A program made the position numbers and the translations under genes. From the NCBI GenBank assembly GCA_043823085.1, contig JBDRBE010000004.1:133510-197509 (forward strand): 64,000 nt of DNA. Reading direction: 5' to 3'. The first letter of the stretch is position 1. Each line of letters starts with the position of its first letter. This DNA comes from Candidatus Levyibacteriota bacterium (GTDB lineage: Bacteria > Patescibacteriota > Microgenomatia > Levybacterales > UBA12049). Of the stretch, positions 19,287-55,458 are shown piece by piece. The notes under the pieces were generated by a model. That model was not told where the DNA came from. It made no database searches and was given only the letters and a program-made list of their open reading frames with translations.

Positions 19287-22112
19287 ATGTTTAAATCATT
19301 TAAACCTGTTTCTCCGAAAGTTGATTTTGTAAAACAAGAGGAAGAAATTCTAAAATTCTGGAAAGAAAATAAAATTTTTGAAAAATCCGTTGAGTCCCGG
19401 CCGGAGAATAAGCCCTGGATTTTTTTAGACGGGCCGCCTTTTATTACCGGCCTTCCGCATTACGGGACTTTACTCTCCAGTATTCCAAAAGATTTATTTC
19501 CAAGATTTAAAACAATGCAAGGATATAGAGTCCGCCGTGTTTGGGGATGGGATTGCCATGGTTTGCCTGCCGAAAATAAAGTTGAAGAAAAGCTTGGCAT
19601 AAAAAGAAAAAAAGATATAGAAGAAAAAGTCGGAGTCAAAAAGTTTATTAATGAATGTAAATTATATGTTAAAAATGTTTCCAAAGACTGGGAATGGTAT
19701 GTTGATCGCATCGGAAGATGGGCAGATTTTGAAAATGCCTACAAAACCATGGACATTTCCTATATGGAGTCGGTGATGTGGGTTTTTAAGCAGATGTACG
19801 ATAAAGGGTTAGTTTATAAGGGGCTTCGTGTTTCGCTTTTTTGCCCTCATTGTTCAACTCCAATTTCCAATTTCGAAGTTGCCATGGATGCCGATAATTA
19901 TAAGGATTTAACAGAACCGACTGCGGTTTATAAATACCGGTTAAAAGCTGAGAAAAATACTTATTTACTGGCTTGGTCAACTACTCCTTGGAATAAATTA
20001 GTTACTTCGTCTTTAGCAGTTAAACCCGATTTAACTTATGTTAAGGTTTGCCAGGGAAAAGAAAATTATATTTTGGCAAAGTCTACCGTTAAAATGCTTG
20101 AAGAGAAACCTTACAAGATTCTGGAGGAATTTAAAGGTAGTGAGTTAGTTGGGAAGGAGTTTATTCCTCCTTATGATTTTTACAAAATTGATCCGGGCAA
20201 AAAGGCATTTATTGTAATAGGCGCTGATTTTGTGACTGAGGAGGAAGGAACAGGTGTGGTTACCCTTGCTCCTTATGGTGAAGAAGATTTGGAAGTAATG
20301 CAAAAGGAAAACATTCAAATAGTGTTGCATGTTGATGAGGAAGGGATTGTAAAGGACTTTGTGCCGAAATTTGGGGGAATGTATTATCTTAAGGCTGATA
20401 AATTAGTGCTTGAGGATTTAAAAGAGCGGGGAGTAGTGTACAGATTAATAGAGCATACCCATAGCGTGCCTCATTGCTGGAGATGCGAAACAAGGCTTTT
20501 TTACGCTCCGCAAAATGCATGGTATGTAAATATCCAGACTTTAAAATCGCAGCTTAAAAAAACCAATGAAACAATAAATTGGTTCCCAAAACATTTTAAA
20601 TACGGCCGTTTCCTAAAAAGCATGGAGCAGGCGCCTGACTGGTGTATTTCGCGAAGTAGGTATTGGGGTTCGCCGGTACCTGTTTGGGAGTGTTTTGGAT
20701 GCGGCCAAAATTTTGTTCCGGACTCAATAAAGGAATTGGAAGAGGCAAGTGGTAAAAAGATTAATGATTTACATAAACCGGAAATTGATGAAATAACAGT
20801 AAAGTGTAAAAAATGCGGAAAAGTTAGTCATCGTGTACCTGAAGTTTTGGATTCATGGATAGAGGCCGGTTCTGCGCCATATGCCGAGCGTCATTTTCCC
20901 TTTGTAAAAGGTCTAAAGCTTGAAGATTTTTTTCCGCCGGATTTTATTGTTGAATATACAGGACAAATAAGAGCTTGGTTTTATGTTCTTCATGTCATTG
21001 GGACGGCAATTTTTAATTCGAAAGCTTTTAAAAATGTTTCGGTGACAGGCGTAATTCTTGGAACAGACGGCAGGAAAATGAGCAAAAACTATAATAATTA
21101 TCCTGACCCAAAACAAATGCTGCAAAAATACGGAGGAGATGCGCTGCGTTTGTATTTAATGGGAAGTCCGGTAATGAAAGGCGAAGATATTTTAATATCA
21201 GAGGATCATTACCGTGAACAAGTGAAAGGAACAATGCTTATTCTTTGGAACATTTATAATTTTTTCGTGATGAACGCAAGTGTGGACAAATGGTCAGTTA
21301 CAAGTTGCAAGTTACAAGTTACAAGCCAGAATGTTTTAGATAAATGGATAAATGCAAGACTAAATGAAACAATACGGGAAGTAACTAATTCGCTTGAGAA
21401 TTTTGATACTGTTTCTGCGATCAAATTTAGCGAAGTATTTATTTCTGATTTATCTCTTTGGTATGTTCGCAGATCCCGCAGCAGGGTTGGCATGGCGGCT
21501 TCCAACAAAGAAGATAAAAATGCGTGTTACCAGACTTTTTACAGAGTTTTAGTAACTTTTTCAAAATTAATTGCGCCGATTACGCCTTTTATTGCCGAAG
21601 AATTTTTTAGAAACTTAACCGGCGAAGAATCAGTTCATTTAACAGAATGGCCGGAAAACAGTTTAAGCATCGATAAAAAACTTATCGAAGAGATGGCTAT
21701 GGTTCGTAAAATTGTGGAAATGGGTCATTCAACAAGAAAAAGCAATAATATTAAAGTTCGGCAACCCCTTTCGAAATTTTCAATTTTTAATTTAAAATTT
21801 TTAATTGATGAAGGCTTAGTTAATCTTGTTAAGGATGAATTAAATGTTAAAGAAGTTATTCAGAAAGAGGGGAAGGGTGATTTGCTAGTCGAGTTTGACA
21901 CAAAATTGACAAAGGAATTGATTGACGAGGGACAAATGAGGGATATTGTCAGAAAAATCCAGGAAGAGAGAAAAAGACTCGAAACAAAACCGGATGAAAA
22001 AGTTAATGTGGTTTTGCAAGACTGGCCAAAAGATTTTGAAGAAGAAATTAAAAAAAGGGCGCAAGCGAACAAACTTTCCAAGGGTGAAAAATTTGAGGTT
22101 AAAAGGGAATGA
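19287..22112 (+). CDS. ileS: Isoleucyl-tRNA synthetase, archaeal/eukaryotic type
   Basis: DGPPFITGLPHYGT (degenerate HIGH), GWDCHGLPAE, KMSKNYNNYPDP (KMSKS). It carries two in-frame heptamer-array insertions. Confidence 0.8.
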   Translation: MFKSFKPVSPKVDFVKQEEEILKFWKENKIFEKSVESRPENKPWIFLDGPPFITGLPHYGTLLSSIPKDLFPRFKTMQGYRVRRVWGWDCHGLPAENKVEEKLGIKRKKDIEEKVGVKKFINECKLYVKNVSKDWEWYVDRIGRWADFENAYKTMDISYMESVMWVFKQMYDKGLVYKGLRVSLFCPHCSTPISNFEVAMDADNYKDLTEPTAVYKYRLKAEKNTYLLAWSTTPWNKLVTSSLAVKPDLTYVKVCQGKENYILAKSTVKMLEEKPYKILEEFKGSELVGKEFIPPYDFYKIDPGKKAFIVIGADFVTEEEGTGVVTLAPYGEEDLEVMQKENIQIVLHVDEEGIVKDFVPKFGGMYYLKADKLVLEDLKERGVVYRLIEHTHSVPHCWRCETRLFYAPQNAWYVNIQTLKSQLKKTNETINWFPKHFKYGRFLKSMEQAPDWCISRSRYWGSPVPVWECFGCGQNFVPDSIKELEEASGKKINDLHKPEIDEITVKCKKCGKVSHRVPEVLDSWIEAGSAPYAERHFPFVKGLKLEDFFPPDFIVEYTGQIRAWFYVLHVIGTAIFNSKAFKNVSVTGVILGTDGRKMSKNYNNYPDPKQMLQKYGGDALRLYLMGSPVMKGEDILISEDHYREQVKGTMLILWNIYNFFVMNASVDKWSVTSCKLQVTSQNVLDKWINARLNETIREVTNSLENFDTVSAIKFSEVFISDLSLWYVRRSRSRVGMAASNKEDKNACYQTFYRVLVTFSKLIAPITPFIAEEFFRNLTGEESVHLTEWPENSLSIDKKLIEEMAMVRKIVEMGHSTRKSNNIKVRQPLSKFSIFNLKFLIDEGLVNLVKDELNVKEVIQKEGKGDLLVEFDTKLTKELIDEGQMRDIVRKIQEERKRLETKPDEKVNVVLQDWPKDFEEEIKKRAQANKLSKGEKFEVKRE
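21297..21324. repeat. Heptanucleotide array gttacaa-gttgcaa-gttacaa-gttacaa (28 nt) in ileS
   Basis: Read directly from the sequence. It encodes SVTSCKLQVTSQ. Confidence 0.9.
21775..21809. repeat. Degenerate AATTTTY heptamer array (aattttc-aattttt-aatttaa-aattttt-aattgat) in ileS
   Basis: Read directly from the sequence. It encodes KFSIFNLKFLI. Confidence 0.8.
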
Positions 22113-23188
22113 AAAGAGGGGGTATTTTAAATATCGAGCTGGGGTTATTAATTCCTGTTTTTGTTCTTGTCTCCTTAGGTCTTGCCACGCTTTTTTCCAT
22201 CAACGTTTCGTATTTTAAAAGTCAACTCGTCTATATTATCCTTTCGTTTTTAGTCTTTATATTTTTTGCCAATGTTAATTATCGGATTTTTCGTTTATAT
22301 TACGTTCAAATTTATATTATTTCTATAATTGCATTTATAATTGTTCTTTTGTTGGGTTTTGAAACTCGGGGGACAATGCGATGGGTTGATATTTTTGGTT
22401 TTCGGATTCAATTCTCCGAAGTGCTAAAGCCATTTTTGGCTGTTTCATTTTCCTCAATGTTGGCCAATAGCAGAAAATCGTTCAAATCTCTTCTTTTGAG
22501 TATTGCTTATCTTATCCCAATTGTTTTTTTAGTTTATATTCAGCCGGATCTTGGTAACGCTTTAATTTATTTTTTTGTAGCACTTTTAACTTTAGTTGTT
22601 ACAGGCTTTCCGCTTATTTGGTTTGGTCTGGGATTTTTTTTCATGGCAGGTTTGTCTCCTTTATTTTGGAGAATGATGCATGGCTATCAAAGAGAAAGAA
22701 TACTTACGTTTATCAATCCAAACAAAGATATTTTGGGAACATCCTATAACGCAATTCAATCGATTGTAGCGGTTGGCTCGGGAATGATTCTTGGGAGAGG
22801 GCTTGGCGAGGGTACACAGTCGGGACTTCGTTTTTTGCCCGAACAGTATACGGATTTTATCTTTGCGACAATTTCTGAAAGCTTTGGATTTTTAGGAGGG
22901 CTTTTAATAATTATTTCGTTTGCTTTCCTTCTCTATAAAATATATTCGATATATAGAGACTCCGAGGATAAATTTTGTAAAATTTTTAGTGCCTGCGTCT
23001 TTTTCTTAATTCTTGTGCAGCTTTTTATTAATATCGGCATGAATATAGGGATTGTTCCTATTGTTGGTATTACTTTGCCCTTTGTTTCGTATGGGGGAAG
23101 CTCGCTTTTATCAAATTTCATTTTACTTGGATTTCTTTCTTCAATTGGCCGTGATATTAAAGAGCAGGAAACACTAGAAATTAAGTGA
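22109..23188 (+). CDS. rodA: SEDS-family protein RodA/FtsW paralogue
   Basis: Polytopic membrane protein of the FtsW/RodA/SpoVE family, with the PFVSYGGSS C-terminal motif shared with the ftsW at 13625. Confidence 0.8.
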   Translation: MKRGGILNIELGLLIPVFVLVSLGLATLFSINVSYFKSQLVYIILSFLVFIFFANVNYRIFRLYYVQIYIISIIAFIIVLLLGFETRGTMRWVDIFGFRIQFSEVLKPFLAVSFSSMLANSRKSFKSLLLSIAYLIPIVFLVYIQPDLGNALIYFFVALLTLVVTGFPLIWFGLGFFFMAGLSPLFWRMMHGYQRERILTFINPNKDILGTSYNAIQSIVAVGSGMILGRGLGEGTQSGLRFLPEQYTDFIFATISESFGFLGGLLIIISFAFLLYKIYSIYRDSEDKFCKIFSACVFFLILVQLFINIGMNIGIVPIVGITLPFVSYGGSSLLSNFILLGFLSSIGRDIKEQETLEIK

Positions 23189-23221
23189 TGAGTTTGATAT
23201 AATTGCTTTTTACAAAAGCAT

Positions 23222-23542
23222 ATGAAGTACGCGGTTATAAAAACAGGCGGAAAGCAGTATAAAGTTGAAGAAGGAGATGTGTTGGAGGTGGAGAGGCTCC
23301 AAATTTTGCCAAATAAGGATTTTAATTTTGAAGAAGTATTGCTTTATGTGTCGGACGATTCTTTTAAAATAGGTAAGCCAAAAGCGGAAGGGGTTAAAGT
23401 TTTGGCAAAGCTCTTGGAACATATAAAAGGAGAGAAAATTAGAGTTTCTAAATTTAAATCAAAAGTAAAATATCGAAGAACTACAGGCCACAGGCAATCG
23501 CTTAGTAAAGTTAAAATTGAATCGATCGGGCTGCATAAATGA
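23222..23542 (+). CDS. rplU: 50S ribosomal protein L21
   Basis: MKYAVIKTGGKQYKVEEGDVL. Confidence 0.95.
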   Translation: MKYAVIKTGGKQYKVEEGDVLEVERLQILPNKDFNFEEVLLYVSDDSFKIGKPKAEGVKVLAKLLEHIKGEKIRVSKFKSKVKYRRTTGHRQSLSKVKIESIGLHK

Positions 23543-23557
23543 TATAATTTGACTGTC

Positions 23558-23602
23558 TTGACTTCTGTGAAAAGTGCAGATAAAATACATTTAGTTTTCA
23601 CA
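23558..23602 (+). promoter_or_regulatory. Sigma70-like promoter (ttgact, 17 nt spacer, taaaat) embedded in an 8-bp inverted repeat (tgtgaaaa/ttttcaca) upstream of rpmA
   Basis: -35 at 23558-23563, -10 at 23581-23586. Inverted-repeat arms at 23566-23573 and 23595-23602. Confidence 0.4.
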
Positions 23603-23610
23603 AAAATACT

Positions 23611-23862
23611 ATGGCACATACAAAAGCACAAGGATCAGTAAAAGGAAATAGGGATTCAGTTGCCAAACGTTTAGGGGTGAAGCTTTTTGGTGGACAAAAG
23701 GCAGAAAACGGCAATATTATTGTCAGGCAAAAAGGAACAAGAATAAGCGCTGGAAAAAATGTTTTGATGGGGAAAGACTTTACCCTTTACGCAGTAGCAT
23801 CCGGTTATGTAAATTTTAAGACAAGATTTGGTAAAAAAATTGTGGAGGTTATTAATGGATAA
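23611..23862 (+). CDS. rpmA: 50S ribosomal protein L27
   Basis: MAHTKAQGSVKGNRDS..GVKLFGGQ. Confidence 0.95.
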   Translation: MAHTKAQGSVKGNRDSVAKRLGVKLFGGQKAENGNIIVRQKGTRISAGKNVLMGKDFTLYAVASGYVNFKTRFGKKIVEVING

Positions 23863-24676
23863 TAATGATCAACAGATAAGCGAAATAGAAATATCACAGC
23901 TTCAAGCAAATCCTTTACAACCCCGTGGGATTATTTCTCCGGAATCAATAGCGGAACTGATGGATTCAATTCGTGAACACGGAATTTTAGAGCCATTGGT
24001 TATTGCAAAAACCCCTGCCGGATTTCAGATAATTGCAGGTGAAAGAAGATGGAGAGCCGCCAAAGCTCTTGGGATGGCAAAAGTTCCGGCAGTCGTAAGA
24101 GAGACAACTCCGCAAGGAATGCTGGAAATGTCAATTGTCGAAAACGTTCAGCGGGAAGATCTTAATCCGATAGAAAGAGCACTTGCCTACAAGAGATTAA
24201 TAGATGAATTTGGTCTTGGAACAAATGAGGTTGCAAAGAGAGTTGGAAAGAGTGCACCGGCGGTCTCAAATACTATTCGGCTTCTATCGTTACCGGATGC
24301 GATTAAAGATGCGTTGGTCGCAGGTGTAATCAGCGAGGGACATGTTCGTCCTTTAATTTCCTTGGAAGATCACAAACTTATGCTTGATCTTTTCAAAAAA
24401 ATATTGCGTGAAAACAGCACTGTCAGACAAACAGAAGAGTTGGCAAGAGAAATTAAATCCGACATACAAAAGAAAGAGCCGCGCACAAAACAGGATAGGC
24501 TGTGGGTGCCGGAAATGGATGAAATGGCAAAGTCAATAGAAAAGAAATTTAATCTTAATAAAGTTACGGTTTATCAGTCAAGAAGTCTGGCAAGACTTGT
24601 TTTGGTAGTTAGAGGAGAAGTGGATATAACAACGCCAAAAATAAAAGAAATTTGCAATTTGCTTGAAGGTGTCTAA
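23855..24676 (+). CDS. parB: Chromosome partitioning protein ParB/Spo0J
   Basis: LEPLVIAKTP..GFQIIAGERRWRAAKALG. The ATG at 23855 (MDNNDQQ) is the likely start; the track ORF begins at 23828 inside rpmA. Confidence 0.85.
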   Translation: MDNNDQQISEIEISQLQANPLQPRGIISPESIAELMDSIREHGILEPLVIAKTPAGFQIIAGERRWRAAKALGMAKVPAVVRETTPQGMLEMSIVENVQREDLNPIERALAYKRLIDEFGLGTNEVAKRVGKSAPAVSNTIRLLSLPDAIKDALVAGVISEGHVRPLISLEDHKLMLDLFKKILRENSTVRQTEELAREIKSDIQKKEPRTKQDRLWVPEMDEMAKSIEKKFNLNKVTVYQSRSLARLVLVVRGEVDITTPKIKEICNLLEGV

Positions 24677-25323
24677 TAAGGATTAGTGATTCTTCTTATT
24701 CTATCAAGCGGCCAATAGGCAAATAGAGAACGCCCGATAACTTCATTTTTTTTGACAAATCCCCATTCTCTGGAGTCCGAACTATAAGGACGGTTGTCGC
24801 CCATAACAAAATACATGTTTTCAGGCACACTGAGCGGTATTCCCTCTTTAAGGAATGAAGAGGGATAAGTTTTAACGTCGCTATTTAAATACATGTGCTG
24901 GTCAAGTTTTTCATTATTGATATAAATATTGTTGTCTTTGAGAAGTATGGTGTCACCCGCAACTGCGATGATTCTTTTAATAAAATCTTTTTCTTCGTCC
25001 AACGGATATCTAAAGACAATTACATCTCCTTTTTTTAGCTCGTCAAACCGCAAGGAAATAAGGTCGGTCAAGATATATTCTTTGTCGTGAAAATTTGGAA
25101 ACATTGAATCACCGTTAACCTGAAATGGCCGAAAAAAGAAAATATAAATAAAAACAAAAAATGAGGCAAAAAGAAGTAAAGTTTGAGCGGTGTCAATAAA
25201 GAATGAAAATATTTTCCGTAAGATAAACATAAAATATATTGTGGCAGAGAGCTTAAATTTTGTCAACGATAATAATCTGTGGTAAGATTGAGGTGAAGTG
25301 TGGGTACTTAGCTCCCCGTACAA
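24673..25323 (-). CDS. lepB: Signal peptidase I
   Basis: GDSMFPNF (catalytic Ser box) and VMGDNRPYSSDSREWG box E. Confidence 0.85.
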   Translation of the reverse strand: MYGELSTHTSPQSYHRLLSLTKFKLSATIYFMFILRKIFSFFIDTAQTLLLFASFFVFIYIFFFRPFQVNGDSMFPNFHDKEYILTDLISLRFDELKKGDVIVFRYPLDEEKDFIKRIIAVAGDTILLKDNNIYINNEKLDQHMYLNSDVKTYPSSFLKEGIPLSVPENMYFVMGDNRPYSSDSREWGFVKKNEVIGRSLFAYWPLDRIRRITNPY

Positions 25324-25395
25324 TTCTTACTTGCTCCCGAGGGTTGCATCCTCGCGTCGCAAAGGCGGATATACGGGCAAGTAGTGGTTTTATAT

Positions 25396-25467
25396 GGATC
25401 CGTAGCTCAGTGGTAGAGCGTTCGGTTCACATCCGAAAGGTCAGAGGTTCGATACCTCTCGGATCCA
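25396..25467 (+). tRNA. tRNA-Val (anticodon CAC)
   Basis: 72-nt manual cloverleaf fold: acceptor ggatccg/cggatcc, anticodon loop ttCACat, T-loop ttcgata. No encoded CCA. Confidence 0.85.
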
Positions 25468-25541
25468 CTTTTCGTATTTTGTTCGCATTTTTCTCTTTCC
25501 CGCCATCTTAGCACTCTCTGCATATGTCTGATAATCGAGAT

Positions 25542-26489: not shown

Positions 26490-26598
26490 ATTATTATGAG
26501 TTTGATTATAATATTAATTATTAAGTAATGCAAGCTTAGGCTTCTACGGAATATATTTAGGTTTTATTAATTTTAAATTTAATGGTAGAATTTGAGGA

Positions 26599-27681
26599 AT
26601 GCGGGTTTTATTTTTAACAAGACTTTTTTATCCCCATATCGGCGGAGTTGAAAGACATGTGATGGAGTTGAGTAAGAGGTTGGTTGAAAGAGGAGACGAG
26701 GCATCGGTAATCACAGAGGCAGATTCTCATAATTTTCAATTTTCAATTTTCAATTTTCAATCAAATTCTAATGTAAAAATTTTAAATAAAAAAACACCAG
26801 GCAAGATCGAAATTTATCGGATACCGGTAGGTAAAGATAGCTGGTTTAAGAAGTTTCGGATTTGGCAATGGATGTGGAAACATCGGGAGTTGATTAGTAG
26901 TGCTGACGTTGTCCACTGTCATGATGTATTCTTTTGGTATTTGCCGTTTAGATTCTTGTTTCCGCAAAAGAAAGTTTTTACAACCTTTCATGGTTACGAA
27001 AGCTATCCCATTTCCAAAAAAGCAATAATTGTCCGAAAAATTTCAGAACTTTTATCATTTGGCAATATTTGTATCGGCGATTTTATCAAAAAATGGTACA
27101 AAACAAAAGCGACGTTTGTTTCATATGGCGGCGTCAATGCCAAAAATCAAAAATCAAAAATCAAAAATCAAAGATTAGAAAAAGCAAGAGAGAAGTATTC
27201 CGCTGTTTTCATTGGGCGTTTGGATGAGCAGACAGGAATTTTGACTTATTTAAAGGCGGTTGAATTAATAAAAAAGAAAATTCCTGGTTTTAAATTCACA
27301 GTTATTGGCGAGGGGAGGTTCAAAAATAAAATTCCAAAAGATATTGAGGTTTTAGGATTCCAAGAGAGGGTTGAAGAATATTTCCCAGAATTTAATTTTG
27401 CTTTTGTTTCGCGTTACCTCTCAATTCTTGAGGCAATAGCTGCAAAGCGTCTTGTTTTTGCCCTTTATGATAATCCGGTAAAGCGAGACTATTTAAAAAT
27501 GGCGCCGTTTGCAAAGTTTGTTATTATCTCTAATTCGGAAAAAGAGTTGGCAGAAAAAGTTTTGTTTTTCCTAAAAAATCCGGATAAAGAAAAAGAATTG
27601 GTTGACGATGCTTTTAATTGGGTAAAAAATCAAACATGGGAAAAAGTCCTTCAAACTTACCTAAATCTTTGGAAAAAGTAA
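26599..27681 (+). CDS. Glycosyltransferase family 4 (GT-B)
   Basis: Starts MRVLFLTRLFYPHIGGVERHV, with an E-x7-E-like C-terminal region. It carries two heptamer-array insertions. Confidence 0.75.
   Translation: MRVLFLTRLFYPHIGGVERHVMELSKRLVERGDEASVITEADSHNFQFSIFNFQSNSNVKILNKKTPGKIEIYRIPVGKDSWFKKFRIWQWMWKHRELISSADVVHCHDVFFWYLPFRFLFPQKKVFTTFHGYESYPISKKAIIVRKISELLSFGNICIGDFIKKWYKTKATFVSYGGVNAKNQKSKIKNQRLEKAREKYSAVFIGRLDEQTGILTYLKAVELIKKKIPGFKFTVIGEGRFKNKIPKDIEVLGFQERVEEYFPEFNFAFVSRYLSILEAIAAKRLVFALYDNPVKRDYLKMAPFAKFVIISNSEKELAEKVLFFLKNPDKEKELVDDAFNWVKNQTWEKVLQTYLNLWKK
26734..26761. repeat. (ttttcaa)4 perfect heptamer array inside the GT4 gene
   Basis: Read directly from the sequence. It encodes FQFSIFNFQ. 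Confidence 0.9.
27142..27169. repeat. (aaaaatc)4 perfect heptamer array inside the GT4 gene
   Basis: Read directly from the sequence. It encodes KNQKSKIKNQ. Confidence 0.9.
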
Positions 27682-27716
27682 GCTTCAAATGATATACTTC
27701 AAATATAAAAACAAAC

Positions 27717-28640
27717 ATGAAAGTTTCTTTTGTGGCTACGGTTTTGAATGAGGAGAAGTCAATTGATTATTTCCTTGAATCGCTTTTCAAGCAGTCAGTG
27801 GAGCCGGATGAAATAATCATCGTTGATGCGGAAAGCACCGATGCTACAGCGTCGATAATTTTCAATTTTAAATTTTCAATTTTCAATGAAAAAGTAAAAA
27901 TTATAATAAAAAAAGGGAATAGGGCGGTGGGGAGGAATGAGGCGATAAAAAATGCTACAGGAGAAATTATTGCATGTTCGGACGCCGGATGTGTTTTGGA
28001 TAAAGATTGGTTAAAAAATATCATCGAATCGTTTCAAGACCCAACTATTGATGTAGTTTGCGGATTTTATAAACCAATTACTCACAATATTTTTGAGAGA
28101 TGTTTGGCTACTTACACTTGTGTTATGCCGGACAGAATCGACAGGGAGAATTTCCTTCCATCTTCAAGGTCAGTTGCTTTCAAAAAAAGTGCATGGGAAA
28201 AAGTCAAAGGGTATCCGGAGAATTTAGATACTTGTGAAGATTTAATTTTTGCAAGAAATTTAAAAAAAGCAGGATTAAAATTTAAATTTAATAGAAAGGC
28301 AATAGTTTACTGGCCTCAAAAGAAAAATTTACTTGAAGCATTTAAACAATTTTTTAATTATGCAAAAGGGGACGGTCAGGCAAGACATATACGAATGCAA
28401 ACTCCATTCCTTTTTATCAGATATATTTTAGGTTTTATATTATTATTTTATTCATTAATTTTTAAAATAACATTATTTTATTTTTTAATATTTCTTTTGT
28501 GTTTATATTTTCTTTGGTCAATAAATAAAAGCTTTAAATATATCAAAAACTGGAAGGGATTAATTATTTTACCTGTCTTACAAATGACATCAGATATTGC
28601 AGTAATATCCGGAATGACAGTTGGATTTTTTAAAAAATAA
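27717..28640 (+). CDS. Glycosyltransferase family 2 with a C-terminal TM region
   Basis: Starts [22 protein letters not shown], with a DxD-type GT-A fold. It carries a (ttttcaa)-type insertion. Confidence 0.75.
27848..27875. repeat. Heptamer array ttttcaa-ttttaaa-ttttcaa-ttttcaa inside the GT2 gene
   Basis: Read directly from the sequence. It encodes [10 protein letters not shown]. Confidence 0.9.
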
Positions 28641-30731: not shown

Positions 30732-30732
30732 T

Positions 30733-32240: not shown

Positions 32241-32261
32241 TATTATATAATTAAAATTAAA

Positions 32262-34865: not shown

Positions 34866-34885
34866 AAAAATTAATATTTCCCCTG

Positions 34886-34957
34886 AGCCGATGGCGGGAA
34901 TCGAACCCACGACCTAGTGTTTACGAAACACTTGCTCTACCACTGAGCCACATCGGC
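34886..34957 (-). tRNA. tRNA-Thr (anticodon CGT)
   Basis: 72-nt manual fold on the minus strand: acceptor gccgatg/catcggc, anticodon loop ttCGTaa, T-loop ttcgatt. Confidence 0.8.
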
Positions 34958-38315: not shown

Positions 38316-38320
38316 AACTT

Positions 38321-40996
<2,676 letters not shown>

Positions 40997-40999
40997 AAA

Positions 41000-42869: not shown

Positions 42870-42870
42870 T

Positions 42871-43377: not shown

Positions 43378-43392
43378 AATTTAAACACAAAT

Positions 43393-44338
<946 letters not shown>

Positions 44339-44384
44339 ATTTGTTTTCTTTTATTTAATATTTTAGAGATAACATCAGATTAAG

Positions 44385-47618: not shown

Positions 47619-47622
47619 AAAA

Positions 47623-48396: not shown

Positions 48397-48398
48397 AG

Positions 48399-49766
48399 TT
48401 AATTTAACTTTTTGATTATAGTGTTTCTGATTGTTTCCGTGTTGACTTTTTTGTCTTTTAATTTGCGGTTAACAGAGCCTATAAGAAAGCCCAAGACTTG
48501 AGTTTTTCCATTTTTGTAATCATTTATCGCTTTTTTGTTCTCCAATAAAACTTCTTTTACGATTTTTTCTAATTCGTCGTCGGATATTGTAGTTGTTTGC
48601 GTTGATTTTAATATTTGTTGAATAAGCTCTGCCGGTAAAACTTGTTTAATGTTGATTCTTTTATTTATAATCCAGTTGGCAATTGTTTTTGCGTCTGTCT
48701 GATTCACTTTTACGCATTCTTCAAAATATTCTGCAGTATTTTTTTCTCTGGTTAAAATTTCCGCATCATAATTAATCAAAGAGTACTCTTTTTTAAACCG
48801 CTCGAATTTTTGATCGGGAAGTTCAACCATTTGATTCGCCAGCTGGCGGATTTGATTTTCCGTCCAACGGAATGGAGGAATGTCGGGCTCGGGGAAATAT
48901 CTGTAATCATGCGCTTGTTCTTTGCTTCGCTGGGTTACTGTTGTCTGCTTTTTTTCATCCCAGCCTCTTGTTTCTTGCTCCGGAATTTTTCCAGATTCAA
49001 GAATTTTTTCCTGTCTTTGAATTTCATAATTAATCGCTTTCTCAACGAACTTAAATGAATTGATATTTTTAACCTCAACTTTATAGGGAGGTAATTTATT
49101 GTTTAGATTTGAATTTTGATTTGTAGTTTTGATTTTTGAGGTTTGATTTTTGAGGTTTAATGATATGTTGGGTTCCAGTCTCATTTCTCCTTTCTCCATA
49201 TTCGCATTCGAAACGCCTAGATAGCGGACAATTTGCTGAAGTTTTTGCAAAAATTCTTTAACATCAGTTGAATTCTCAAAATCCGGTTCCGTCACAATTT
49301 CAACTAGGGGAACGGCGGATCTATTAAAGTCGACAAGAGAAAATCCTTCGTCACTATGAATCAATTTAGCTGTATCTTCTTCCATGTGAACACGCCTGAT
49401 CCTTATATTTTTGATTTTTAATTTTTGATTTTTGATTTTGAGCAATCCGTTGATTGCGAACGGTTTATCATATTGGCTTATTTGGTATCCTTTTGCCAAA
49501 TCGGGATAAAAGTAATTTTTTCTGTCAAATTTTGAAGTTAATGGAATTTTACAGTTTAATGCCAGTCCAATCATAATGCACCAATCAATTGCGGTTTTAT
49601 TTGGTACGGGAAGTGCCCCAGGAAGTCCAAGACAAACAGGACAGGTATGAGTGTTTGGATCTTTGCCAAAATACTCGGCAGAACATGAACAAAACATCTT
49701 CGATTTTGTCTTTAGCTCCACATGAACTTCTAGTCCTATAATAGGTTGATATTTTACGTCTTTCAT
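48399..49766 (-). CDS. gatB: Asp/Glu-tRNA amidotransferase subunit B
   Basis: IGLEVHVEL...CSCS N-terminus. It contains two low-complexity insertions encoded by heptamer arrays. Confidence 0.9.
   Translation of the reverse strand: MKDVKYQPIIGLEVHVELKTKSKMFCSCSAEYFGKDPNTHTCPVCLGLPGALPVPNKTAIDWCIMIGLALNCKIPLTSKFDRKNYFYPDLAKGYQISQYDKPFAINGLLKIKNQKLKIKNIRIRRVHMEEDTAKLIHSDEGFSLVDFNRSAVPLVEIVTEPDFENSTDVKEFLQKLQQIVRYLGVSNANMEKGEMRLEPNISLNLKNQTSKIKTTNQNSNLNNKLPPYKVEVKNINSFKFVEKAINYEIQRQEKILESGKIPEQETRGWDEKKQTTVTQRSKEQAHDYRYFPEPDIPPFRWTENQIRQLANQMVELPDQKFERFKKEYSLINYDAEILTREKNTAEYFEECVKVNQTDAKTIANWIINKRINIKQVLPAELIQQILKSTQTTTISDDELEKIVKEVLLENKKAINDYKNGKTQVLGFLIGSVNRKLKDKKVNTETIRNTIIKKLN
49131..49158. 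repeat. Tandem 14-mer (gatttttgaggttt)x2 plus flanking degenerate copies inside gatB (sense strand: aaacctcaaaaatc)
   Basis: Read directly from the sequence. It encodes ...KPQKSNLKNQTSKIK... Confidence 0.85.
49407..49441. repeat. (atttttg)n array of 4-5 units inside gatB (sense strand: caaaaat)
   Basis: Read directly from the sequence. It encodes LKIKNQKLKIKNIRI. Confidence 0.9.
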
Positions 49767-49814
49767 ATATTTTCAACCATAAACACTTTAATGATATATA
49801 TTATTAAAGTAAAC

Positions 49815-51242
49815 TTATAATAAGTTAGGTTTCTTTTTATAATGTTGCGACTCTTGTTCATATTTATTCCCGATGTTGAATAATAATTCTTCTGAAAATT
49901 GCGGTCCGATGATTTGCATGCCAATCGGCAGTCCATTTTTTGAAAAACCGCAGGGTAGCGCAAGGGAGGGGAGTCCTGCCAGATTAATTAAAACTGTATA
50001 AACATCAATTAAATACATTTGTAAAGGATCATTGACCTTCTCCCCTATTTTAAACGGCGGGGTAGGCGAGACCGGAGCAATTATAACATCGCATTGCGTA
50101 AATGCTTTTTCAAAATCGTTTTTAATTAAAGTTCTAACTTGCATTGCTTTTCTGTAATAAGCTTCGTAATATCCGGCCGATAATGCATATGTTCCAAGCA
50201 TGATTCTTCTTTTTGCTTCACTGCCAAAATTTTCTCTTTCCGATCCAAATCTTATATTATCGTATCTTGCCAAATTAGAACTGGTTTCAGAAGGCGCAAT
50301 AATATAATAGGTGGCAATGCCGTATTCGGTTCGCGGGATTGAAACATCAATAATATGTGCGCCTTTTTCCTCCAAAGTTTTTAACGCTTTGTTGATAGTT
50401 CCTTTAACTTCGCTGTCCAAACCTTCCTGATAGAATTCTTTTGGAATCCCGATCTTTAGTCCTTTTATTCCTTTATTTACTGATTTAATATAATCGGGAA
50501 CTTTGTTGGGCGAACTGGTAGCATCTAAAGAATCGATTCCAGCCATGATATTCAATAAATAAGCATTATCGTGAACGCATTTTCCCATCGGACCAACGCT
50601 ATCAAGTGAAGAAGCGTAGGCAATAGCACCGTAGCGTGAAACTCTGCCGTAAGTTACTTTTAATCCGGTAGTTGAACAGAATGAGGAAGGAAGGCGGATT
50701 GAGCCTCCTGTGTCCTCGCCTACTTCAAAAATAGTCATGTCGCTTGCTAGAGCTGCGGCAGCGCCGCCGCTTGAGCCACCTGCAACATATTCACTGTTCC
50801 ATGGGTTTTTCGTCGTGCCGTAGTCGGAATTTTCGGTTGAACTGCCATGTCCAAAAGCGTCGCAGTTGGTTTTTCCAATTAAAATCGCGCCTGCATCTTT
50901 TAATTTTTTGTAAACAGTTGCGTTATAGGGTGGAATATAATTTTCTAAAATTTTTGATCCGGCAGTTGTTTTAATTCCTTTGGTGGAATAAATATCTTTC
51001 ATAGAGAAAGGGATGCCTAATAACGGCTTATGGCTAATAGCAGACGGTGTATGGTTTATTTCTTCATCGGCTCGTTTAGCATTTCCCACCGCTTCTTTTT
51101 CGCAAACCGTGATATAGGCGTTTAATTTTCCATTTAATCTCTTGATTTGTTCAAAACAGGCGGACACCAGTTCTAAAGATGAGAATTTTTTAGTTTCCAG
51201 TCCTTCCTTCGCTTCTTTTATGGTTAGGTGGTTTAGTGTCAT
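49815..51242 (-). CDS. gatA: Glutamyl-tRNA(Gln) amidotransferase subunit A
   Basis: Amidase signature GGSSGGAAAALA. Confidence 0.95.
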   Translation of the reverse strand: MTLNHLTIKEAKEGLETKKFSSLELVSACFEQIKRLNGKLNAYITVCEKEAVGNAKRADEEINHTPSAISHKPLLGIPFSMKDIYSTKGIKTTAGSKILENYIPPYNATVYKKLKDAGAILIGKTNCDAFGHGSSTENSDYGTTKNPWNSEYVAGGSSGGAAAALASDMTIFEVGEDTGGSIRLPSSFCSTTGLKVTYGRVSRYGAIAYASSLDSVGPMGKCVHDNAYLLNIMAGIDSLDATSSPNKVPDYIKSVNKGIKGLKIGIPKEFYQEGLDSEVKGTINKALKTLEEKGAHIIDVSIPRTEYGIATYYIIAPSETSSNLARYDNIRFGSERENFGSEAKRRIMLGTYALSAGYYEAYYRKAMQVRTLIKNDFEKAFTQCDVIIAPVSPTPPFKIGEKVNDPLQMYLIDVYTVLINLAGLPSLALPCGFSKNGLPIGMQIIGPQFSEELLFNIGNKYEQESQHYKKKPNLL

Positions 51243-51244
51243 AT

Positions 51245-51343
51245 AATTTTCAATTTTTAATTTTTAATCAATTTTCAATGACAAAATTTTTGAACATTAA
51301 AACATTTTGATTTCACTTTAAATTTCAAATTTTAAATTTAAAA
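51245..51343. repeat. gatC-gatA intergenic spacer built almost entirely of AATTTTY/AAATTTY heptamer-like units
   Basis: aattttc-aattttt-aattttt-aatcaattttcaatg ... aaatttc-aaatttt-aaattta-aaatt. Confidence 0.7.
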
Positions 51344-51625
51344 TTACGAATCTAGTATCGCTTTCACCTTGAACATTCCATTATGCGTATCTTTCCCGTT
51401 TGCCAGCGCTTCTTCTTGGGATAATGAAGGCTTTGCTTCGTCAGTTATCGTCACATTTTCCAGTCCTGTAACCTGGCTTGTCGGTTCTACATTCTTCGTT
51501 TCTACCTCTCCAAGTTTTTTAATATAATTGAGGATAGAAGAAAGCTGGGATTCAAATGTTTTTATTTCCTCGTTTTTTAACTCCAAATTCGCAAGTTTCG
51601 CAACGTGTTTAATATTCATTTTCAC
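51344..51625 (-). CDS. gatC: Glutamyl-tRNA(Gln) amidotransferase subunit C
   Basis: 93 aa, starts MKMNIKHVAKLANLEL, GatC family. Confidence 0.85.
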   Translation of the reverse strand: MKMNIKHVAKLANLELKNEEIKTFESQLSSILNYIKKLGEVETKNVEPTSQVTGLENVTITDEAKPSLSQEEALANGKDTHNGMFKVKAILDS

Positions 51626-51746
51626 ATATTAATTATAGGTTCTTGCAAAATAATTCGCAACATGAAAAATAAATATGTATGGTGCAATATCACTTGAGTT
51701 TGTTTTAACAGTTGACAGCGATGTATTTGGGTGAAAGAATTAAAAC

Positions 51747-52028
51747 ATGAAAACAAAATATCAAAATGGGGGGTTGGAAGAAAAAATAGCAAGTGTATTC
51801 AGCGATTTTTTTCATGAAACCCTCGCTCCATACTTGGAAGAAAAATTTAGCGCAATTGATAAAAGATTTGATGAAAACGATATGGATCATGAGAAAATTT
51901 TTCGGGCGGTAGAGAGAAACAAAGATGAACACGACAAAATTTTTCAGGACTTAGAAAAAGCTGAAAAATTACTTAATGTTCATGGAAAGAAAATTAAACA
52001 TTTAAAATCCGCAGTTTCCGCTTTATAA
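51747..52028 (+). CDS. Hypothetical small coiled-coil protein
   Basis: 93-aa ORF, charged and helical. No family recognised. Confidence 0.4.
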   Translation: MKTKYQNGGLEEKIASVFSDFFHETLAPYLEEKFSAIDKRFDENDMDHEKIFRAVERNKDEHDKIFQDLEKAEKLLNVHGKKIKHLKSAVSAL

Positions 52029-52143
52029 TTAGTTTTTCAGTTTAGTGGAAAACTTTCGCAACGTGTTTTATATCAATTGTCATATCATAATTATATTCGC
52101 TTAAAGTTTAGTTCGTAAGGTGAAAATATGCTATAATCACATC

Positions 52144-53220
52144 ATGAGCAAACTTCAAATTGGAATCATTTCATGCGGGGGAACAATTGTGATGGAAAAA
52201 GGGATAAAAGGTGCCCTTGAGCCAAAGAAGAAAATTAAAGACGTTTTGGATACAGTAAACTTAGCTGAATTAAAAAAAGAAATATCTATTCTCCCTGAAA
52301 ATTGTATAGAATTATTTATACTTGATAGCTCAAATCTTAATCAATCTCATTGGGTTAGAATTATCGACGCGGTTAGAAACTTGCAAAACAAATGCGACGG
52401 TATTCTTATATTTCACGGAACCGATACAATGGCTTATTCAGCAACTGCTGTTGGACTTGCACTATGCCAAAAATTGAAAGTTTCAGTTGTTTTTACCGGC
52501 AGCCAAAAGCCAATCGGAGAGCTTGGCAGCGATGCCATTTCCAACGTCGAGCGTTCAATGCTGGTTCTTAAAGAGGCTGTAACAGAGGGGGTTTTAGAAA
52601 GCATGGTTTTCTTTGATGACCAAGCTTTTAGAAGCGTTAATACTAGAAAAAGAAGCGAATCTGAATTTGCAGCTTTTGAAAGCCCAAATTACAGACCGCT
52701 TTTTACAGTTGACGGCATGGGAGTAAAAATTGGTATCTTGGGAAGAAAATTGGAAGATATTAAAAATTCAAAAAATAAAATAAAAGTTGAACTTAAAAAC
52801 GCTTTTGCAAACGGGATTATCCCTTTGTCTGTTGTTCCCGGACTTGAGCCTGGAGCGCTTGAGGCGATAGCAGAAAAAGATTTTTGCAGAGTTCTTATTT
52901 TAAACTCTTTTGGGGTTGGTAATGTGCCGTCAGAAGGTAAATATAGTGTTGTAAACGCAATTGATAAAATAGTGCATAAATTAAAAAAAATTGTAATTGT
53001 AACTTCTCCTTTTGTAGGCGGTAATGTAGACATGAATGTTTATTTACCGGGAAAATTAGCTATGGAGGCAGGGGCGATAGATGCAGGAAGTATGACCGCT
53101 GAAGCGGCTCTTGTAAAAACCCGATTGCTTCTTGCTCATCCAGAGTTTGGAATATCAGTACCTGAATTTAAAAAAGCATTGCTTGCGAATTTTGCAGGAG
53201 AAAACCCATCGGTCCTATAG
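52144..53220 (+). CDS. L-asparaginase, type I family
   Basis: SCGGTIVM and FHGTDTMAYS asparaginase signatures. The ATG at 52144 lies 7 nt downstream of a tataat box and may give a leaderless mRNA; the track ORF begins at a GTG at 52120. Confidence 0.75.
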   Translation: MSKLQIGIISCGGTIVMEKGIKGALEPKKKIKDVLDTVNLAELKKEISILPENCIELFILDSSNLNQSHWVRIIDAVRNLQNKCDGILIFHGTDTMAYSATAVGLALCQKLKVSVVFTGSQKPIGELGSDAISNVERSMLVLKEAVTEGVLESMVFFDDQAFRSVNTRKRSESEFAAFESPNYRPLFTVDGMGVKIGILGRKLEDIKNSKNKIKVELKNAFANGIIPLSVVPGLEPGALEAIAEKDFCRVLILNSFGVGNVPSEGKYSVVNAIDKIVHKLKKIVIVTSPFVGGNVDMNVYLPGKLAMEAGAIDAGSMTAEAALVKTRLLLAHPEFGISVPEFKKALLANFAGENPSVL

Positions 53221-53222
53221 AA

Positions 53223-53978
53223 TTACTCATTTTTTATTCTTTTAATTATAAAATCGCGGGCTTGGAGTTCGAGTGAGTCGTCGAGGTCAGAAAGAGGGAT
53301 TTCTTTTTTGTATTTTTTTTCGAGCGCCAGTTTTATTAAATAGTCTGTGAATTCGGGGTTTTTGGGGAGAATCGGACCGTGAAGGTATGTTCCAAAACTA
53401 TTTTTGTAAACAGCGCCCTCGGTTTTATCAATTCCATTATTTCCAAATCCGGAAATAACTTTGCCAAAAGGCCTTACGTTTTTCCCAAGATAAGTTCTTC
53501 CGCCATGATTTTCGAAACCAACCAACTGGCTTATGGCGCATGGTTTGTGGCTAATAGTTTTTTTGCTATTCACGATATGCCATGTGTTATCTGCTTGGAT
53601 AATGATATTGCCAATCAATCGTTTATAATCGCTTCCTGGGTTTTCGGTGTAAAGGTCGAGGATGCCAAGGCCGGGAATTATTTTTCCGTCTGCTTCTTTA
53701 TAATATTTTCCCAAAAATTGATATGCGCCGCAGATGTAAAGCCCTGGAATTTTATCTTCAATAGCTTCTGATAGCGCTTTTATTTTTTCTCGAGATAGAT
53801 CTTTGCCGACAATCTGCTGTTGTTTATCTTGCGCGCCGCCCATAAATAGCAGGTTGCACGTAGCTAATAGCTTGTGGTCAAAACCGACATCAAGATGTTT
53901 AATTTCAACTTCAATTTCCCGCCACAGACAGCGTTTCTGCAAAACAATAATATTTCCTCTGTCGCCGTAGGTATTCAT
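53223..53978 (-). CDS. gatD: Lipid II isoglutaminyl synthase glutaminase subunit GatD (CobB/CobQ-like GATase)
   Basis: GDRGNIIVLQKR, GFENHGGRTYL and GTYLHGPILPKN closely parallel Staphylococcus aureus GatD. It lies adjacent to murT. Confidence 0.8.
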   Translation of the reverse strand: MNTYGDRGNIIVLQKRCLWREIEVEIKHLDVGFDHKLLATCNLLFMGGAQDKQQQIVGKDLSREKIKALSEAIEDKIPGLYICGAYQFLGKYYKEADGKIIPGLGILDLYTENPGSDYKRLIGNIIIQADNTWHIVNSKKTISHKPCAISQLVGFENHGGRTYLGKNVRPFGKVISGFGNNGIDKTEGAVYKNSFGTYLHGPILPKNPEFTDYLIKLALEKKYKKEIPLSDLDDSLELQARDFIIKRIKNE

Positions 53979-54007
53979 GAGTTCGGGGTATAACCAACCG
54001 ATAGTTA

Positions 54008-54028
54008 GCGTATGGCGTATGGCGTATG
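54008..54028. repeat. (gcgtatg)3 heptamer array in the gatD-murT spacer
   Basis: Read directly from the sequence. Confidence 0.85.
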
Positions 54029-54030
54029 GT

Positions 54031-55458
54031 TCATAGTATTTTACGTCCTGTTAATATTTTTCTAACTTCTAACATGGCTGAATAAGTCGGCAGAATATAA
54101 AGTGTTTCTGATTTTGGAGTATTAGTCAATGCGGAAGAAATTGCATTTCTTAAGTCTGACTCAATTTTTAATTTGAAATTTTTAATTTTCATTGAATCAT
54201 TCATTTGAAATTTGGAATTTGGAATTTGGAATTCATTGAAAGTATATTTAATGCGTAGTCCCATATCGTAGCATCTGTCTCCCGAAACAGTAATTGTTTT
54301 AAAATCATTAATAGCGCTTTCAATGTCCGTGTCCCATATCCACGATACATCTCTGCCGTCGGGAATTCTATCATTTAAAACAAAAAGCAAATTTTTCCTG
54401 CCCGCAACGCCTCGCAACGCTCGGCTTACATGGCGGGCGGGTCCTCCAAGTTCTATAACAGTTTTTAACGATTCGTTAAAACTCGTCGGATTTTTGGAGA
54501 GAAAAATTCTAACTTTCTTCCCATCAATATTAATTGTTTCCTGTCTGCCAAAGGCGGGGGTGAAATTCTGTAAAGCAGAATTAATTACTTTATTATCGAT
54601 ATTAATTCTCTTTGCCAAAAGAATTGCCGCGCGAGTGTTGTATTTATTATATATTCCGGAAAGAGGATAGAATTCAACTTTAAACATATCTGTTTTAGGT
54701 CTTTTGAAAGCGCATTGGTCGCATTTCCAGTCGCCAAGGTGAGAAAAATAAACCTTATTAAATTGGAGTTTATTGCTACAAGAAGGACAGTAAACAGAAT
54801 CGGAGGCGTGTTGATGCGTAGAAGCGTCACTGCTGTTTTTTTCAATTCCGAAATATTTTGTAGTTGCTTTGACGTCTTTTCCCAAAAATGCAATTAGCGG
54901 GTCGTCGGCATTTAATATTAATGTTGTATTTTTGGAAAGTGTGGCTAAAGATTCCTTCCATTTTTTGGCAATTGAGTCAATTTCCCCATATCTGTCTAGC
55001 TGATCGCGAAAAAGATTAAGCAGAATAATGTAATCGGGAATCAGTTCACTGATTGCAGATGGCAATGTGTTTTCATCAACTTCAAAAATTGCATAGTCAT
55101 AATTTAATTCGCAAAGTATGCTGCTATGTAGCAACATACTTGATGCAATGCCGTTTAATAAATTTGCGCCTGATTGGTTTTGAAAAACCCGCCAGTGGGC
55201 GGGCAGGCTTTTTTCGTGATATTCAAGAATGGTTTTGATAAGTTTACCAGTTGTAGTTTTTCCGTTCGTTCCGGCAATTAAAACAGTCTTTACGTTTGAA
55301 TTTTTTAAAATGTCTTTAATAAAATTTTTGTTAAGTATTAACGCGATGTGTCCGGGCCAGGTTGAACCGGAACCAAGATTCAACGCATTGCTTATTTTAG
55401 AAAGTAGTTTGCCAATTATAATCAATAATATGTTAAGCATTTTTATATTATACCGCAA
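54031..55458 (-). CDS. murT: Lipid II isoglutaminyl synthase MurT (Mur-ligase family with Cys4 ribbon and DUF1727-like C-terminus)
   Basis: IAGTNGKTTTGKLI P-loop and a CPSC..CDQC zinc ribbon, paired with gatD. It carries a heptamer-array insertion. Confidence 0.8.
   Translation of the reverse strand: MRYNIKMLNILLIIIGKLLSKISNALNLGSGSTWPGHIALILNKNFIKDILKNSNVKTVLIAGTNGKTTTGKLIKTILEYHEKSLPAHWRVFQNQSGANLLNGIASSMLLHSSILCELNYDYAIFEVDENTLPSAISELIPDYIILLNLFRDQLDRYGEIDSIAKKWKESLATLSKNTTLILNADDPLIAFLGKDVKATTKYFGIEKNSSDASTHQHASDSVYCPSCSNKLQFNKVYFSHLGDWKCDQCAFKRPKTDMFKVEFYPLSGIYNKYNTRAAILLAKRINIDNKVINSALQNFTPAFGRQETINIDGKKVRIFLSKNPTSFNESLKTVIELGGPARHVSRALRGVAGRKNLLFVLNDRIPDGRDVSWIWDTDIESAINDFKTITVSGDRCYDMGLRIKYTFNEFQIPNSKFQMNDSMKIKNFKLKIESDLRNAISSALTNTPKSETLYILPTYSAMLEVRKILTGRKIL
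54205..54232. repeat. ttgaaat-(ttggaat)3 heptamer array inside murT (sense strand: attccaa)
   Basis: Read directly from the sequence. It encodes EFQIPNSKFQ. Confidence 0.9.

Follow-up and report, generated by a model that had tools for sequence, protein, structure and literature searches.

Heptanucleotide arrays recur at the same positions of core genes in a Candidatus Levyibacteriota genome and its Microgenomates relatives

Introduction

Short tandem arrays of 7-nt units recur inside core genes of a Candidatus Levyibacteriota bacterium, a member of the Microgenomates within the candidate phyla radiation (CPR), and inside the same genes of its relatives. The sequence examined, hereafter the window, is a 64-kb stretch of a metagenome-assembled genome (MAG) with a GC content of 31–37 %, where arrays are hosted by the genes for IleRS, MurT, GatD, MurG, GatB and glycosyltransferases of families GT4 and GT2. 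Essential genes are not expected to retain non-triplet microsatellites, since each slip by one unit shifts the reading frame; here, they are common in the core genes of a CPR lineage.

Heptanucleotide simple sequence repeats (SSRs) are described as the most abundant class of long SSRs in many bacteria, where they are mainly intergenic, in-gene repeats being mostly multiples of three, and a hypothesis of slippage related to the polymerase footprint has been proposed for them (Mrazek, Guo and Shah, 2007, as cited in PMC4692102 and PMC4679880). Examples given through the same two papers are the GGGAATC repeats of Xanthomonas, the GGGGAYT repeats of Nostoc and the heptanucleotide repeats of Calothrix. 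The mode of about four units found in Xanthomonas was not attributed to the reading frame and, according to Rehm et al., a G-quadruplex can arise from four units or more. The arrays described here resemble this class in their tandem 7-nt units, the excess of period 7, the many different units and the mode of about four units, as in Xanthomonas, but differ in that ca. three quarters or more of them are located in housekeeping genes, apparently translated, at orthologous positions and without change in length. They also differ from the TAACTGA direct repeats of Beggiatoaceae and cyanobacteria, present in 2–6 copies and patchily distributed across lineages (PMC4679880), which consist of a single stop-containing unit, are intergenic, immediately upstream of start codons, and have a proposed regulatory role.

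The closest precedent within an open reading frame (ORF) is the poly-psi motif of NeuO, from prophage CUS-3 of Escherichia coli K1, where (AAGACTC)n is situated in the 5′ coding region and slippage has been documented (PMC3046976). As in NeuO, an in-ORF heptamer gives one heptad of seven residues per three units (RLKTQDS in NeuO and, from AAAACTC, KLKTQNS here), its unit is rich in A, includes C and has no stop in any frame, and only certain copy numbers are in frame (here for gatD, with three versus four copies). However, NeuO, with its 2–93 copies, undergoes strong phase variation, and only one gene is involved there, accessory and phage-borne, in which the repeat forms an N-terminal disordered extension, whereas the arrays described here have ca. 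4.7 copies, occur in many core genes, are mostly internal and are sometimes predicted to be structured (β-strand).

Borg elements of Methanoperedens contain perfect in-ORF tandem repeats (amino acid tandem repeats, aaTRs) of unknown mechanism, for which slippage is suspected (PMC9879509). They share with our arrays the perfect, recently homogenised units, the flanking partial repeats, the genome-specific formation and an A-enriched coding strand (A 46 % and C 15.5 % in Borgs; A 48 % and C 14 % here). The in-ORF units of Borgs are nevertheless long, all divisible by three, and create disordered regions by insertion, unlike the short arrays (ca. 33 nt) of a 7-nt unit found here, which mostly replace existing sequence.

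Rickettsia palindromic elements are dispersed palindromes of 100–150 bp, with a family consensus, that constitute true in-frame insertions in coding genes. As with these elements, the arrays are short repeated DNA tolerated in frame in essential genes, at surface-permissive sites; unlike them, the arrays have no consensus element (34 units among 63 arrays, and no motif in their flanks), no palindrome and mostly no change in length. No paper describing in-gene heptamer arrays was found in the literature on CPR/Patescibacteria. The heptamer excess of bacteria and an in-ORF heptamer array, that of NeuO, were already known.

Results and Discussion

Tandem arrays are specific to period 7 and favour about four units

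The window was compared with a sample of 80 related loci around ileS (1.34 Mb) and with a larger set of 100+ loci (ca. 1.55 Mb); labels L### designate loci from related genomes, and labels P#### IleRS homologs from a protein search. The window contained four exact arrays of period 7 with at least three copies, versus 0.0 in 30 dinucleotide-preserving shuffles, and none of periods 6 and 8–15. When mismatches were tolerated there were 12 arrays at period 7 and none at periods 8–15, and 21 out of 76 rows reported by Tandem Repeats Finder (TRF) were of period 7. The same was observed in the 80 related loci, with 45 arrays at period 7, nine at period 6 and three at period 8, and it extended to the protein level: in 120 IleRS homologs there were 20 lag-7 runs of at least four identical residues, versus 0–4 at any other lag. 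The arrays therefore behave as heptanucleotide SSRs, with head-to-tail 7-nt units over-represented with respect to composition and to other unit lengths. Many were 100 % perfect, with 0 % indels in TRF for nearly all arrays of period 7.

In the ca. 1.55 Mb set, exact runs of period 7 with 2.x copies numbered 101 (28 expected from codon-block shuffles), followed by nine perfect arrays of 3.x copies, 22 of 4.0–4.9 copies and only two of five or more, and there were no arrays of 4.x copies at any other period from 4 to 12. The preference for about four units is thus a real, non-monotonic mode in copy number. The length of good arrays peaked at 32–34 nt (24 out of 38). An original prediction, made from the window sequence, had proposed a process specific for tandem heptamers, with a preference for about four units; both points are supported, period 7 being the only one in excess in the window as well as in its relatives.

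Array density was overdispersed among loci (chi-square P 3e-11). GC content was rejected as a predictor of array-bearing genomes (Spearman ca. 0). The flanks of the 38 good arrays showed no target motif, target-site duplication or terminal repeat, and Rfam and tRNA scans gave no match overlapping the arrays. ORFs of at least 100 aa cover ca. 93 % of the window and 16 out of the 21 TRF arrays of period 7 are within ORFs; the remaining five mostly touch start or stop codons.

The sites in IleRS are shared among species and largely length-neutral

Gene ileS (19287..22112, plus strand) codes for an isoleucyl-tRNA synthetase of 941 aa (matches to IleRS structures in PDB with E 8e-209) and contains two arrays. 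Its product is 100 % identical to P0001, annotated as isoleucine--tRNA ligase and encoded on a 431-kb contig of a Candidatus Levyibacteriota MAG, and the next sequences, from Levy-, Gottesman- and Daviesbacteria-type Patescibacteria, are 69–74 % identical. Loci L021, L036, L046, L061 and L075 were excluded from the IleRS set because the longest ORF picked was not ileS. Arrays with different units occur in different species at four positions of this protein, sites A to D, as well as in the MurT loop, the GatD N-terminus, MurG, GT4 and GT2.

The array at site A (21296..21325, plus strand) was described by TRF as AGTTACA x4.3 with 91 % matches and encodes SVTSCKLQVTSQ. The letters at 21297–21324 are GTTACAA GTTGCAA GTTACAA GTTACAA, so that the (GTTACAA)4 of the original prediction exists with one mismatch (A>G at 21307); the other two arrays that it listed, in murT and between gatD and murT, are also present, and the peptides that it gave for the ileS and murT arrays were correct on translation. 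Other species have arrays with other units at site A (L010, L012, L019, L024, L031, L039, L017, L055 and L062). Compared to PDB 8c8v, site A is an ordinary loop longer by only 2 aa, and in the AlphaFold model of IleRS (mean predicted local distance difference test, pLDDT, of 77) it is a low-confidence loop (pLDDT 60) between helices 639–666 and 683–704.

Site C (21775..21806, plus strand; TRF) harbours a degenerate array, of type AATTTTY x4.6, that encodes SKFSIFNLKFLI, is predicted by AlphaFold to be a confident β-strand (E828–836, pLDDT ca. 90) and aligns length-neutrally to 8c8v. The two arrays had been taken as independent insertions in IleRS, which is not supported by the small difference at site A or by the length neutrality of site C. 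Perfect arrays of L009, L002, L006, L004, L008, L029 and L010 align in register with the site C array of the window. Eight species share here a 33-nt block in which the AATT core is kept and unit positions 1, 6 and 7 are species-specific, being altered in every copy. The segment is exactly 18 aa long in 35 out of 36 array-like orthologs; in array-less orthologs its length has modes at 17, 18 and 20 aa and its sequence is conserved and non-repetitive, of the SYKGPEEL type. A contracted state of 11 aa was not found among 192 IleRS orthologs.

At site B, arrays of 35 nt in register and with near-identical flanks occur in L016 (CAAAGTT x5), L024 (CAGAATT), L055, L062 and L054 (CAAAACT) and L008, array-like orthologs having 15 aa versus a mode of 13 aa in array-less ones. 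Site D is different, since its arrays are true net insertions of 3 to 5 aa. Comparison with empty orthologous sites thus revealed no insertion at sites B and C, net insertions, of varying size, being confined to site D and the MurT loop. Additionally, the ileS genes of L023 and L034, 92.7 % identical, differ at six out of 33 array positions, four of these six at unit position 1.

The presence of in-register arrays with different units at the same sites suggests concerted evolution or re-creation. As judged from these alignments, the arrays would be concerted in-place rewrites, or repeated re-creations of the whole array, and mostly not insertions.

Some variants of these sites were also observed. 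In site D, L009 has a clean AAAAGTC x4.9 array, and L006 (ca. 5879 and upstream) has a 25-aa insertion flanked by AAAGTCA-type remnants (KV...SKVK). In site C, the array is interrupted in its middle by a non-repeat insertion of 7 aa in P0004 (QLTIYNS-LASLRSG-QLTI) and of 15 aa in P0030 (KYQISS...15 aa...KYQISS); both look like insertions into a pre-existing array.

Arrays in MurT, MurG and glycosyltransferases

Gene murT (54031..55458, minus strand; stop TGA at 54033..54031) codes for a subunit of lipid II isoglutaminyl synthase (PDB MurT entries 7q8e, 6gs2 and 6fqb, E ca. 1e-49). It contains an array (54203..54233, minus strand; 4.4 copies in TRF) of three sense AATTCCA units followed by AATTTCA and a partial AAT, which encodes EFQIPNSKFQ and corresponds to the letters TTGAAAT (TTGGAAT)3 at 54205–54232. 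A neighbouring degenerate array of sense AAAAATT-type x3.9 (54163..54189, minus strand) encodes KIKNFKLKI. Both window arrays, at 54203 and 54163, are covered by a loop, RIKY..[array]..IExxL, that carries AAAATCA x4.7 in L081 and AAATTTC x4.7 in L083. Array-less orthologs are 5–19 aa shorter in this loop, indicating that the arrays there are net insertions of 5 to 19 aa.

The murG array (AATTTTC x4.7; 15195..15227, plus strand) is situated directly 3′ of the GNPVR motif, and L007 has an AAGATTT/A array at GNPIR[array]DEK. The GT4 glycosyltransferase gene contains a perfect AATTTTC x4.4 array (26731..26761, plus strand; TRF and exact-run scan) and, after the YGGV motif, a perfect CAAAAAT x4.6 array (27141..27172, plus strand); arrays follow the corresponding YGGV/GGV motif in L009 (AAATATC) and L034 (AAATTAA-type). 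Likewise, the AATTTTC x4.4 array of the GT2 glycosyltransferase gene (27857..27887, plus strand; TRF) has counterparts at the corresponding place in L009, L064 and L024.

The gatD array is out of frame

Gene gatD, coding for the GATase_3 glutamine amidotransferase that is the partner of MurT, occupies 53223..54034 on the minus strand if read from its ancestral start at 54034, with the longest canonical ORF starting at 53978. The murT stop overlaps the ATG that starts gatD (ATGA) in the window and most relatives. In the window, this ATG (54034..54032) reads MNHTPYAIR followed by a stop, and the first ATG, GTG or TTG codon in the gatD frame is that of the Met at 53978. The interval contains a perfect array of sense (CCATACG)x3.1 (54008..54029, minus strand; TRF 100 %), which is exactly (GCGTATG)3 at 54008–54028. 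When a single copy was left in a reconstruction of this array, the ATG read MNHTLTIGWLYPELMNTYGDRGN and the GATase_3 match grew from profile positions 10–195 to 1–195. The same spot has four degenerate CTATACG-like units, in frame, in L083, L084, L085, L104 and L093, and (AATTCCA)x4.9, also in frame, in L102.

Three copies thus lead to a stop, whereas one or four copies would be in frame; the window has three, compared to four in relatives with 52–60 % identity in MurT, which points to slippage by unit steps. By these comparisons, the array lies in the ancestral 5′ coding end of gatD, and its three copies are an out-of-frame number, one unit below four. The (GCGTATG)3 placed by the original prediction in a gatD-murT spacer therefore belongs to the ancestral N-terminal coding sequence of gatD, thrown out of frame. 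A copy number that sets the frame, as in NeuO, was found for the gatD array only, those in ileS and murT being internal. Loci with high-frequency phase variation typically have long arrays in surface or accessory genes; those described here are short (3–5 copies) and belong to core genes.

Because of the three-copy array, the ancestral, ATGA-coupled start of gatD is lost as assembled. Possible causes are a genuine frameshift allele, use of the ATA at 54020 as a rare start or a minority variant caught by the assembly, and GatD could be produced from an internal ATG, from the rare ATA start or by a four-copy subpopulation. At such arrays, automatic annotation can assign wrong starts and frames, as occurs here with gatD. 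The longest canonical ORF begins 56 nt (ca. 19 codons) downstream of the ancestral ATG, and the first conserved strand (GATase_3 positions 1–9) is missing from it.

Units are diverse and stop-free in the sense orientation

The 63 arrays, drawn from 34 genomes, comprised 34 distinct units, and the window alone had at least ten different ones. This diversity agrees with the proposal of the original prediction that a process specific for heptamers, and not one selfish sequence, is at work, although some propagation between loci is possible, as discussed below.

The sense strand of the arrays is composed of 48 % A, 33 % T, 14 % C and 5.5 % G. A 7-nt unit gets read in all three frames and must therefore be free of stops in all of them; 21 out of 26 units were stop-free in the sense orientation only, and units that create stops (RAATTAA, AAGATTT) were kept only with one stop-avoiding substitution per 21 nt. 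The gatC-gatA spacer (51245..51345, minus strand) contains two non-coding arrays, at 51245–51279 and 51320–51345, that are not stop-free. The stop-freeness limited to the sense strand, together with the relaxed filter in this spacer, indicates that the in-gene arrays are probably translated and filtered by selection. Of the two spacer arrays, which contain TAA/TGA, one is just past the gatC stop and the other directly upstream of the gatA ATG.

Composition and stop-freeness were rejected as the source of the unit repertoire, because the top units that they predict (ATATATT, ATTATTT and similar ones) were absent. A role as slippery heptamers for −1 ribosomal frameshifting was dropped as well, since the X XXY YYZ pattern is matched by AAATTTC but not by the majority of units, and so was a relation to CRISPR spacers, whose size matches that of the arrays (32–34 nt), there being no repeat or leader context. 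Arrays with a shared unit were seen in L008 (12382–12414 and 12503–12538), in L062 and in the window (AATTTTC arrays at 15195, 26731, 27857 and 21775).

Origin of the arrays

We consider strand misalignment at a 7-nt offset, by slippage plus templated conversion and filtered by selection, to be the best explanation for the arrays, a reading towards which we lean, if only slightly. During DNA synthesis or repair, the nascent strand would mis-pair with the template at an offset of 7 nt. If synthesis continued from the misaligned point a unit would be gained or lost, as in classical slippage, whereas realignment after a few copied bases would overwrite a neighbour with the adjacent unit, leaving the length unchanged. 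Repeated events of this kind could turn a patch of ca. 33–35 nt into a near-perfect heptamer array, and would keep units identical within an array while their sequence drifts between species, i.e., concerted evolution. Selection would then retain arrays that preserve the frame, units that are stop-free in three frames (A-rich in the sense strand, typically with a C between the T-run and the next A-run) and arrays placed in segments that tolerate any amphipathic or hydrophilic peptide of 10–11 residues. Such a misalignment would explain why the period is so specific, why sequence is overprinted at unchanged length, why parallel substitutions are periodic, why the arrays are so perfect and how essential genes tolerate them. 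Both the molecular step, in which the 7-nt misalignment may or may not be followed by realignment, and the involvement of a responsible enzyme are inferred; conversion without change in length is suggested by the length neutrality of arrays in register.

Several points weigh against this explanation. Cycles of −21/+21 nt would end in a state identical to that left by conversion. Seeding by chance microhomology predicts arrays of ca. 28–30 nt, shorter than the observed peak of 32–34 nt, and the model leaves unexplained why arrays stop just short of five full copies, why the unit is of 7 nt and why only some Microgenomates lineages have them. Units AAAATTC, AAATTTC and AATTTTC, each expected to make up ca. 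0.27 % of the stop-free mass, contribute 15 out of the 63 arrays. Pairs of arrays from the same genome had identical units in nine out of 69 cases, versus 2.0 expected (P ca. 0.001, permutation), which hints at copying or exchange between loci, extra selection or genome-specific constraints. Finally, a metagenome scan with MurT and the IleRS protein search found no strain-level relatives (best identities of 74 % aa for IleRS and 61 % for MurT) and, consequently, single events, whether indels or clusters of periodic substitutions, cannot be counted directly.

Classical slippage on its own, with whole-unit changes of which only net steps of three units (21 nt, or 7 aa) survive, e.g., from 4.7 to 1.7 and back to 4.7 copies, would homogenise arrays by cycling and explain the mode of four copies as 1+3; we judge it unlikely. 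It is favoured by the three-copy state of gatD as a unit step, by the non-monotonic peak at 4.x copies, by the extra 7 aa within the site C array of P0004 and by NeuO, which is in frame only with copy numbers that are multiples of three (PMC3046976). In GatD, the conserved W is preceded by 7–12 residues in array-less proteins (nine in the one-copy reconstruction of the window) versus 16 in four-copy relatives, although from these array-less lengths just the nine-residue case differs by +21 nt. Nevertheless, slippage alone would have to proceed in essential genes either by triple-unit steps, time and again, or through intermediates with lethal frameshifts, and at sites B and C the orthologs devoid of arrays do not have segments shorter by 7 aa; the lack of the 11-aa state among IleRS orthologs and the constancy of 18 aa at site C also argue against it. 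A propagating heptamer cassette of ca. 33 nt, selfish or spread by ectopic gene conversion, would produce genome-specific families of units and agrees with the excess of shared units within genomes and the narrow array length (32–34 nt). Examples are a GAATTCA block that L008 has at both site B and site C, a unit common to sites A and B of L062, and AATTTTC in at least three genes of the window (murG, GT4 and GT2) besides the AATTTT[CT]-type degenerate array in ileS. The cassette is nonetheless quite improbable, given the 34 distinct units, the different units in most pairs within a genome and the flanks devoid of conserved motifs, target-site duplications or terminal repeats; the in-register, length-neutral arrays, with unit cores conserved across species, fit better with vertical inheritance and change in place.

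Selection on the protein for a 7-residue amphipathic repeat (e.g., xFxIxNS xFxI, as a β-strand or hairpin), with the periodicity of DNA as a by-product, would be consistent with the confidently predicted β-strand of alternating hydrophobic residues at site C and with the conservation of hydrophobic positions 2 and 4 and of Asn at position 6 across units. It would not, however, require perfect nucleotide repeats, and arrays of period 7 also occur in non-coding spacers, over start and stop codons and in disordered loops such as site A, while array-less orthologs fill the segment with unrelated sequence, e.g., SYKGPEEL; we find it very improbable. Templated addition of 7-nt units at breaks, by a telomerase-like enzyme or a reverse transcriptase, would agree with the strictness of the 7-nt unit and with the favoured size of the arrays. 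Templated addition, the candidate mechanism of the original prediction, is however highly implausible, because the many units per genome (at least ten in the window) argue against one template, also for rewriting of the type of diversity-generating retroelements, and because arrays mostly replace sequence without adding length. As for chance low complexity or an assembly artefact, the genome is AT-rich (31–37 % GC), as are most units; yet shuffles that preserved dinucleotides or codon blocks gave ca. 0 arrays, density was unrelated to GC content and independent MAGs, obtained in many studies, share in-frame arrays at orthologous sites, which makes this virtually out of the question.

Beyond misalignment at a 7-nt offset, some Microgenomates might have a distinct process, perhaps dependent on a particular polymerase or on missing repair, that rewrites patches of ca. 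33–35 nt in place into perfect heptamer arrays, keeps these homogeneous through evolution and occasionally copies units between loci; we regard this as a speculative idea with a rather small chance of being correct. If true, segments of essential proteins (IleRS, MurT, GatD, MurG, GatB) would be continually re-coded by a non-triplet repeat; this would be a previously undescribed form of concerted evolution of core genes, from which new peptide segments would arise naturally. In-place rewriting, if it is correct, would reveal a mutational mechanism, 7-nt misalignment with realignment, that could bear on the long-noted, unexplained heptamer bias of bacterial repeats. CPR marker-protein alignments and phylogenies contain segments whose similarity reflects repeat turnover and not descent.

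Other arrays and features of the window

Gene gatB contains a sense AAAATCA-type x4.7 array (49407..49439, minus strand), encoding KIKNQKLKIKN, and a longer degenerate array of period 7/14 (49108..49153, extending to 49158, minus strand), for which TRF gave 6.7 copies of period 7 and 3.2 of period 14; the latter may represent an expanded state or one with a superperiod of two units. An AAAATAT x3.6 array (14677..14701, plus strand; TRF) bridges the ftsW stop and the murG start. Another one, (ATGAATT)x3 (8038..8059, plus strand; TRF), lies over the start codon of an alpha/beta-hydrolase gene and provides three ATGs in three frames, so that copy number could set the frame at this other 5′ end.

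Many of the closest IleRS loci (L004, L005, L008, L010–L012 and others) come from records titled "uncultured Gammaproteobacteria bacterium", yet they are clearly Microgenomates by their IleRS (62–67 % aa to the window protein), and the titles look mislabelled. At ca. 34 kb of the window, the predominant gene orientation changes from plus to minus and the curve of cumulative GC skew levels off; the A-rich strand of the in-gene arrays is the sense strand on both sides of this switch.

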